From positions 1 through 54,576 of IMG/VR virus record IMGVR_UViG_3300001528_000116: 54,576 nt of DNA; one strand, given 5' to 3'. The notes below the pieces were generated by a model. That model was not told the DNA's origin. It worked only from the letters and a program-made list of their open reading frames with translations, and searched no databases. Within the stretch, counting starts at the first letter, position 1, and each line of letters opens with the position of its first letter. This document shows positions 21,011-21,257 of the stretch, piece after piece. A program made the position numbers and the translations under genes. Source of the stretch: a virus.

Positions 21011-21257
21011 TGTTACAAACTCCCTCGCGCGCGTATATGAGCGTTCGCGTAGGCGTTTTAGGGCGTATAAATATACCTAATACCTCTATTTCATAGGGTA
21101 TATTAGAAATAAATGTAATATTGTAACAAAATGCTCTAAACCCTTATAAATAAAGGCTTTGTGGCGTTACATTCTCTGTTACATAAATGTAACAATGTAA
21201 CTTTTTACTGTTACATTTTCTGAATTTGTAACGCGATTGTAACAGAAAATGTAACAG
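21011..21257. repeat. GTAACA-iteron intergenic element, copy A (between terL and portal)
   Basis: Alignable along its full length with 28349-28608 and 50483-50730. Carries about 10 TGTAAC/GTTACA hexamers plus the conserved cgcgcgtatatgagcgttcgcgtaggcgtttta block. Confidence 0.85.

Follow-up and report, generated by a model that had tools for sequence, protein, structure and literature searches.

Comparison with related phages, together with a structural prediction, suggests that the TGTAAC/GTTACA hexamers concentrated in three intergenic segments of this viral DNA are iterons, and that each segment, of ~250 bp, is probably a replication-origin module of the SaPI Rep/ori type. In the window, i.e. 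the whole 54,576-nucleotide stretch of DNA that was analysed, TGTAAC occurs 61 times on the two strands, compared with 25.1 ± 5.1 in dinucleotide shuffles (maximum 39), and 33 of these 61 units fall inside the three cassettes A, B and C (10, 12 and 11 units, respectively), which together take up ~1.4% of the window. The cassettes are co-oriented on the minus strand and align over ~260 nt with a mean column identity of 81%. A preliminary description of the same DNA, made from the letters of the sequence, had reported the positions and shared orientation of the three copies and 10-12 sites in each, and had proposed the multiple alignment given here; all of this held. When paralogues and orthologues were compared, the hexamer positions were 92-100% identical, versus 50-73% for the remaining positions, a contrast that points to selection on the units and speaks for the origin reading.

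Followed in the direction of transcription, each cassette is composed of (i) a left set of 8-9 units, of which the initial 3-4 are direct with 11-12-bp spacing and the others of mixed orientation, (ii) a spacer of ~40 nt containing a small hairpin, (iii) a right pair of two direct units, 2 nt apart, (iv) an AT-rich stretch with two TAGRG motifs as well as TAATAT, (v) box 1, CGCCTAAAACGCCT, (vi) a spacer of variable sequence, (vii) box 2, CTCATATACGCGCG, and (viii) a single inverted unit, located ~97 nt beyond the right pair and facing it across that distance (Table 1). DNA rich in A and T lies on both sides of the right pair, in the interval that separates it from the left set and beyond it, and an AT-rich -10-like motif, tCTATAnA, lies at a fixed distance from the right pair. 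The split of units around the central module is uneven, its far side carrying one unit in the window copies and two in L096, L081 and L156. Every sub-part named in the preliminary description was recovered, namely the palindrome GTTACA-N4-TGTAAC, direct pairs such as GTTACAWTGTTACA, the segment TTGTTA-18-TAATAT, the GC block and the one terminal inverted unit. The GC block, described there as conserved, is exact in A and C and deviates in B only in the inter-box spacer.

Table 1. Coordinates of the three cassettes, their sub-parts and the gene of the proposed iteron-binding protein (positions in the window)
Feature	Position	Strand	Supporting observation
Copy B, origin-type cassette directly 3' of pri-rep, ancestral position (proposed)	28349..28608	-	first unit 5 nt past the stop codon; 65/66 related loci
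B left iteron set, 9 units (4 direct, 11-12-bp spacing; then mixed, including GTTACA-N4-TGTAAC)	28506..28606	-	unit count
B right iteron pair, GTTACAATGTTACA	28453..28466	-	pair-to-inverted-unit layout in 34/61 related loci
B central module	28356..28452	-	kept across phages with differing iterons
B AT-rich stretch, candidate unwinding element, TTAGAGG/TTAGGG repeats	28404-28452	-	
B box 1, CGCCTAAAACGCCT	28390-28403	-	
B box 2, CTCATATACGCGCG	28366-28379	-	
B terminal inverted iteron, TGTAAC	28350..28355	-	co-varies with the array units in other phages
Copy A, extra origin-type cassette, terL/portal	21011..21257	-	same position in L008, L011, L013, L015, L016, L017
A left iteron set, 8 units	21166..21255	-	
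A right pair, GTTACAATATTACA; second unit degenerate here, intact in relatives	21114..21127	-	
A central module: AT-rich stretch, box 1 (21051-21065), box 2 (21028-21041)	21018..21113	-	
A terminal inverted iteron	21012..21017	-	
Copy C, extra origin-type cassette, lysis-operon terminator/CI-controlled early promoter	50483..50730	-	kept in L003, L004, L007, L018, L060, L068, L075
C left iteron set, 8 units	50639..50728	-	
C right iteron pair, GTTACATTGTTACA	50586..50599	-	
C central module: AT-rich stretch, box 1 (50523-50536), box 2 (50500-50513)	50490..50585	-	
C terminal inverted iteron	50484..50489	-	
pri-rep, fused primase and self-loading initiator-helicase, 852 aa, proposed iteron binder	28611..31169	-	Pfam VapE-like, E=3e-76; 7PDS match
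Pri-Rep C-terminal domain, residues 746-852, predicted specificity (winged-helix) domain	28614..28934	-	AF2 and Foldseek

Pfam and PHROG searches confirmed the flanking genes that had been assigned from the sequence. Copy A lies between terL and the portal gene, B between a gene for a VapE-type primase-helicase (852 aa) and those for VRR-NUC and SNF2, and C between a glucosaminidase/CW_7 endolysin gene with its intrinsic terminator and a consensus early promoter, TTGACA-17-TATAAT, that is predicted to be CI-controlled. All three copies are oriented with transcription and sit at operon or module boundaries; the settings of A and C are unusual places for copies of an origin. Composition skew is uninformative, nearly all genes being on one strand.

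The proposed iteron-binding protein, Pri-Rep, is encoded directly upstream of copy B. Its residues 421-776 match chain 7PDS_A of PDB entry 7PDS (phmmer against PDB, E=4.9e-81), which is SaPI1 Rep1, a self-loading initiator-helicase (PMC9371898), while its N-terminal 420 residues match PHROG primase/helicase-primase families. An AlphaFold (AF2) model of the last 123 residues had a pLDDT of 89, and the only significant Foldseek matches of this C-terminal domain (CTD) model in the PDB were six 7PDS chains (E~2e-5, TM 0.68), the next matches being winged-helix DNA-binding domains that were non-significant. The CTD is accordingly modelled with a Rep1-type winged-helix fold, and its contact with DNA is predicted.

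A link between this protein and the hexamers came from four independent near-isogenic pairs of loci whose iterons differ (L102/L157, L112/L113, L120/L123 and L144-145/L146). Across these pairs the N-terminus and core of Pri-Rep are at most 5% diverged, as against 2-44% for the first part of the CTD (13-44% in three of the four) and 16-28% for its last ~60 residues. Sliding-window identity revealed a single, contiguous divergence hot spot that takes in the final ~100-300 nt of pri-rep and extends across the left array; identity in the flanks is mostly 90-100%, and 95-100% for the two closest pairs. In three of the four pairs there is a further difference elsewhere in the locus; in L102/L157, an 83-aa ORF ~7 kb upstream is only 51% identical. 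Within the arrays of this last pair the spacers are unchanged and every unit is changed (CGCAACATT vs GGTAACATT; e.g., cGCAACAtt to gGTAACAtt). More generally, all units of a cassette, including the terminal inverted one, change in concert across phages, and the A- and B-type copies of a single phage (L065/L023) carry the same GTCAACA/GTTACA mix. Among distant pairs, which are non-independent, those having a unit in common are more alike in the last 62 residues (0.52 vs 0.58; one-sided Mann-Whitney p=1.7e-10), and sharing of the unit had no effect at the N-terminus (p=0.89, again for non-independent pairs). It would thus appear that the codons for the Rep C-terminus and the adjacent iterons move as one contiguous unit, and the CTD, where divergence tracks iteron identity, is predicted to be the origin-specificity domain. 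No one-residue recognition code was evident by eye in the CTD wing. The origin of L112 is a hybrid when set against that of L113: its left array and first pair unit are GGCAACA, and its second pair unit and terminal inverted unit are ACTACA, as in L113, an arrangement that indicates a likely recombination breakpoint within the origin.

The same pairs bear on the interpretation favoured in the preliminary description, which took the elements for middle or late promoter/activator arrays with the sigma-like ORF 26140..26547 as partner. According to this alternative, which we now consider unlikely, the product of that ORF, a RinA/ArpU-like activator of the Ltr type, would bind the repeats and switch on TTGTTA-18-TAATAT at three operon starts. 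It has a precedent in the Ltr (RinA/ArpU/LtrA-C) proteins, whose binding sites are direct repeats, specific to each phage, that precede late promoters (PMC3753634); the ORF matches PHROG 36 and 248, annotated as regulator/activator, the right iteron pair occupies the place of a -35 element, 16-18 nt before the AT-rich -10-like motif that recurs in relatives, and the cassettes are co-oriented with the genes at module boundaries. However, the regulators encoded upstream of terS in L102 and L157, which belong to these same two PHROG families, are 99% identical, while all units differ between the two loci. Since the units co-vary with the CTD of the directly upstream primase-helicase and not with the regulator, a sigma-like or Ltr-type partner was rejected. 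Moreover, tblastn matched the window regulator in no more than about one in four of the 66 loci with arrays that are described below, the S. aureus PVL phage has rinA at the position of the regulator gene and yet its array adjoins virE, and no cassette is found between ORF 26140 and terS at 23022, where Ltr repeats would be expected. The promoter-like segment TTGTTA-18-TAATAT does exist as described, but it agrees with the consensus at only 8 of 12 positions, was not called by a promoter scan and is poorly kept in L012 and L023; copy C, for its part, is already preceded by a strong terminator and followed by a consensus promoter. BLASTP of the sigma-like ORF product against S. aureus RinA gave no meaningful similarity. 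The AT-rich -10-like motif is compatible with a promoter that lies within the origin or is coupled to it, the two functions not being exclusive.

Close relatives of the phage were recovered by pattern scans of IMG/VR, metagenomes and GTDB genomes, and they harbor cassettes at the same three positions; copy A is absent from the sister clade L031-L035. Cultured-phage DNA contained no match to copy A (blastn) or to 10 kb of the window (megablast). In the scan of genome contigs no more than four loci came up: a 76.5-kb contig of an unclassified MAG has three of them, and a 4-kb contig of an Oscillospiraceae MAG, which offers a clue to the host of the phage, has the fourth. Phages at a greater distance combine the same architecture and GC block with other units (GGCAACA in L022; GTCAACA in L023/L012), and their terminal inverted unit changes along with those of the array. 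One of them, L012 (110-480), has an A-type cassette followed by a promoter of its own, TTGACA-17-TATATT, a small membrane-protein gene (a moron), a terminator and the portal gene.

For the wider family, 80 loci were fetched by SNF2 alignment, and the arrays were counted in those 66 that include both genes. In 65 of these 66 loci, the S. aureus PVL phage among them, a 6-mer is repeated at least 6 times at the 3' end of the primase-helicase gene, against a background of ~30 such arrays in the other 1.09 Mb. The top-scoring 6-mer took 34 different forms across loci, some of which are overlapping registers of one unit, and most of these forms fit the theme NNNACA(T/A)T. The sub-structure made up of the pair, an interval of 96 ± 8 nt and the inverted unit was found in 34 of 61 related loci. 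In phiSa2wa, the cultured S. aureus PVL phage, the order is virE, an array of nine TGTTGCATC units, VRR-NUC, SNF2, rinA, HNH and terS, and there is one array only. The virE/VRR-NUC intergenic region of the clinical phage phiSa2wa-st80.4 (L159, 16181-16452) contains nine TGTTGCATC/GATGCAACA units as well as TAGGG/CCCTCTAA motifs, and to judge from these it has the same origin architecture as the window cassettes. The record annotates a 35-aa 'hypothetical protein' within the array region and no origin feature, and a literature search brought up no origin described for the pol A / VirE / VRR-NUC / SNF2 phage group. A GC-rich contig (ODWR01000696.1; L076, 3170-3480) shows GGTGAAG/CTTCACC arrays, then AAAACGCCTGACGCGCGCATATACGCGCGCG and one more GTGAAG; it has no protein in common with the window, may be a distant or a convergent origin of like design, and was set aside as a relative on account of possible convergence.

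While the iterons change from phage to phage, the conserved core of the central module, CGCCT...CATATACGCGCG, does not, and its reader is therefore probably a conserved partner, e.g., the primase part of Pri-Rep or host replisome factors, and the core might thereby act as a priming or loading signal. Two metagenome contigs (L040 and L049) bear a CRISPR array, with the repeat GTTTTAGTACTCTGTAATTTTTCGCTATGATAAAAC, in which the spacer GCCTTAATTTGAACCCTCATATACGCGTAT is identical at 30 of 30 positions to the box 1-box 2 core of phages with TTAACA iterons (L127-L132 and L152) and at 29 of 30 to that of L126; a host thus targets the conserved origin core.

The preliminary description had also raised the possibility that the GC block is transcribed as a leader RNA. 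In such a reading the block and the TAGRG/CCTAA segments would form a cis-acting RNA downstream of a promoter, such as an attenuator or a processive antiterminator of the put type, and we regard this as very unlikely. Some relatives do have long complementary arms (18 bp in L086, 9 bp in L150 and L143, and TTAGGCGT/ACGCCTAA in L080), arms such as TTAGAGAG/CTCTCTAA are attractive to the eye, and on average the central regions have more stable folds than their shuffles (mean z -1.96, with 12 of 28 under -2). Nevertheless, the two strands fold equally well (-20.5 kcal/mol for sense vs -21.2 kcal/mol for antisense, p=0.26), so that nothing favours RNA over DNA. The best stems of the window copies are no longer than expected by chance (p=0.10-0.52), Rfam returned nothing on the element at the gathering threshold or even at E≤10, and the left and right motifs are non-complementary in several phages, including L147 and L149. 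Any complementarity present is a DNA-level feature or a set of motifs.

Elsewhere in the window, Rfam identified an RT-2 RNA at 53990-54269 (minus strand; 106.7 bits, E=8e-24), directly upstream of a 415-aa ORF (52754-54001, minus strand) of which L009 encodes a 55%-identical homologue; the RT-2 motif is associated with reverse-transcriptase genes. A second match, to the GP20-a cis-regulatory motif, lies at 17591-17683 (minus strand; 72 bits), upstream of a 238-aa ORF (16918-17634) in the head-morphogenesis region.

Two further explanations are scarcely credible. One would have an alternative sigma factor use the GC block as its -35/-10 promoter, since TAAAAC in box 1 and CATATAC in box 2 resemble the sporulation-sigma pattern AC-N16-17-CATA, with a spacer of variable sequence between two conserved boxes and 15-17 nt from AAAAC to CATATA in the window clade; but over the wider family the box-to-box distance, counted by hand, is 10-15 nt, which is too loose for -35/-10 elements, box 1 is missing in some relatives (e.g., L087 and L138), and no sigma factor was found besides the weak region-4-like ORF. 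The other, to which we attach just as little weight, would see the cassettes as operator arrays of the prophage repressor, or as functionless mobile copies of a MITE. The phage is indeed temperate and encodes a serine integrase as well as an HTH protein resembling CI, and the cassette ends are inverted 7-mers. Yet the CI/Cro switch (43816-44005) has no TGTAAC at all and, like the early promoter by C, uses a different operator, of the TCAGTTAAATAAATTTGAC type; and with regard to a host-derived MITE without positional conservation, an option mentioned in the preliminary description, the cassettes are kept at the same positions in relatives, no target-site duplications flank A, B or C, and the genome-contig scan detected the cassettes in bacterial genomes on no contigs other than the two from MAGs. 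The operator-like motif itself, of ~22 bp (TCAGTTAAATAAATTTGAC / TTTGTCAAATTTATTTAACTGA), is repeated at the divergent CI/Cro region and also at 50380-50470, overlapping the early promoter just downstream of C, a distribution that suggests two repressor-controlled early promoters.

We therefore return to the origin reading. Iterons were the option listed last in the preliminary description, and it is this option that Rep1 homology, position, conservation and co-variation support; its more general idea, a multi-site platform for a phage-encoded DNA-binding protein, likewise agrees with the comparative evidence. In the mechanism that we propose, Pri-Rep would bind the iterons through its C-terminal winged-helix domain, assemble both on the left array and on the units that flank the ~97-nt central module in opposite orientations, melt the AT-rich part and load itself as the replicative helicase. 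Copy B, immediately past the pri-rep stop codon, would be the ancestral origin, and A and C would be displaced paralogues under the same constraint, serving either as additional initiation sites or as initiator-bound sites of fork stalling. Stalling at A or C could aid the switch from theta to concatemeric mode, in the way proposed for SPP1 oriR. Both A and C keep every sub-part, keep their positions in the clade and change their units with B (L065 vs L023), which argues that they are targets of the same protein, and we infer that they are functional targets of the one acting at B. The three alignable copies, with A in the late region (terL/portal), have identical units, and this suggests a single initiator. 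Three origins in a 54.6-kb genome would be unusual, and this counts against the origin reading, as do the uneven distribution of the units and the GC block, for which the SaPI origin has no equivalent in the account of PMC9371898.

A broader formulation, possible although we would sooner doubt than adopt it, extends to a large family of Firmicutes siphoviruses that includes the S. aureus PVL phages. These would share a composite origin consisting of a swappable Rep CTD with its iterons, plus an invariant ~70-nt core (TAGRG repeats, CGCCT boxes and CATATACGCGCG) that might be an unrecognised priming or helicase-loading signal; the module would be triplicated here, and A and C, as programmed fork barriers bound by Rep or as secondary origins, would control the theta-to-concatemer switch and mark the limits of the replication and transcription modules.

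The origin reading provides a testable origin and initiator for the whole pol A / VirE / VRR-NUC / SNF2 group, which includes many phages of gut Clostridia. A swappable Rep CTD with its iterons would bear on phage-phage and phage-satellite incompatibility and, as a specificity module, on replicon engineering for hard-to-transform Clostridia. The triplication, with one copy at terL/portal, would offer a natural case for the idea put forward for SPP1, that a second, initiator-bound origin triggers the concatemeric switch.

Among the known systems, iteron-type plasmid origins include RK2 oriV, and RSF1010 oriV has hairpin-forming priming sites that are read by the plasmid primase. The window cassettes follow the general scheme of such origins (PMC4980987) in combining iterons with an AT-rich unwinding element and a GC-rich segment next to it; the plasmid initiators are unrelated to Pri-Rep, and no strand-specific ssi hairpins emerged from the analysis of the window. 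The binding sites of Ltr proteins, found just upstream of terS (PMC3753634), are likewise short phage-specific repeats, which a small phage protein recognises through its C-terminal part, and the window has a gene of this kind, at the position held by rinA in the S. aureus relative. In contrast, Ltr sites consist of 2-4 direct repeats after the ltr gene and before terS, whereas the window has 10-12 units in both orientations, away from the regulator gene and without co-variation with the regulator.

The repeats of SPP1 are longer boxes, of ~15-18 bp. They have been described only as direct repeats. The two origins of SPP1, oriL and oriR, are similarly organised; oriR is located in an intergenic island surrounded by late morphogenesis genes, and the initiator bound there was proposed to stall forks and to trigger the switch to concatemeric replication (PMC6316719, PMC3485210). 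Like the window, SPP1 has origin-like copies that agree in their internal organisation (repeats and an AT-rich unwinding element), one at the initiator gene and another among the late genes, and the oriR island lies next to morons, as does the A-type copy of L012. It differs in that its initiator, gp38, is unrelated to Pri-Rep and needs a separate loader and a DnaB-type helicase, in that oriL lies inside gene 38, and in having two copies instead of three.

The closest counterpart is the Rep/ori system of the SaPIs (PMC9371898; PDB 7PDS, 7OLA), in which ori follows rep immediately and has an AT-rich middle flanked by 6-12 iterons of five or six nucleotides, at least 2 of them on each side, the two sides being oppositely oriented. 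Recognition of these iterons falls to a winged-helix domain in the CTD of Rep, and SaPI5 encodes primase and Rep as one fused protein, Pri-Rep (PMC9371898). The window shares with this system (i) a homologous initiator (E=5e-81) with the same predicted CTD fold, (ii) the primase-helicase fusion of SaPI5, (iii) an origin-type element directly 3' of the gene, in the case of copy B, A and C being elsewhere, (iv) iteron number within the same 6-12 range (10, 12 and 11, with a 6-bp core), in both orientations and with an AT-rich segment, and (v) element-specific iterons matched to a variable CTD. On the other hand, the window is a 54.6-kb temperate siphovirus and not a satellite, its layout is asymmetric (8-9 units, then 2, then 1) whereas that of the SaPIs is roughly half-and-half, it has an extra conserved module of ~70 nt without counterpart in the SaPI origin as described in PMC9371898, and it carries three copies per genome. 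What is new relative to the known Rep-iteron type of origin is thus the triplication and the added conserved core.
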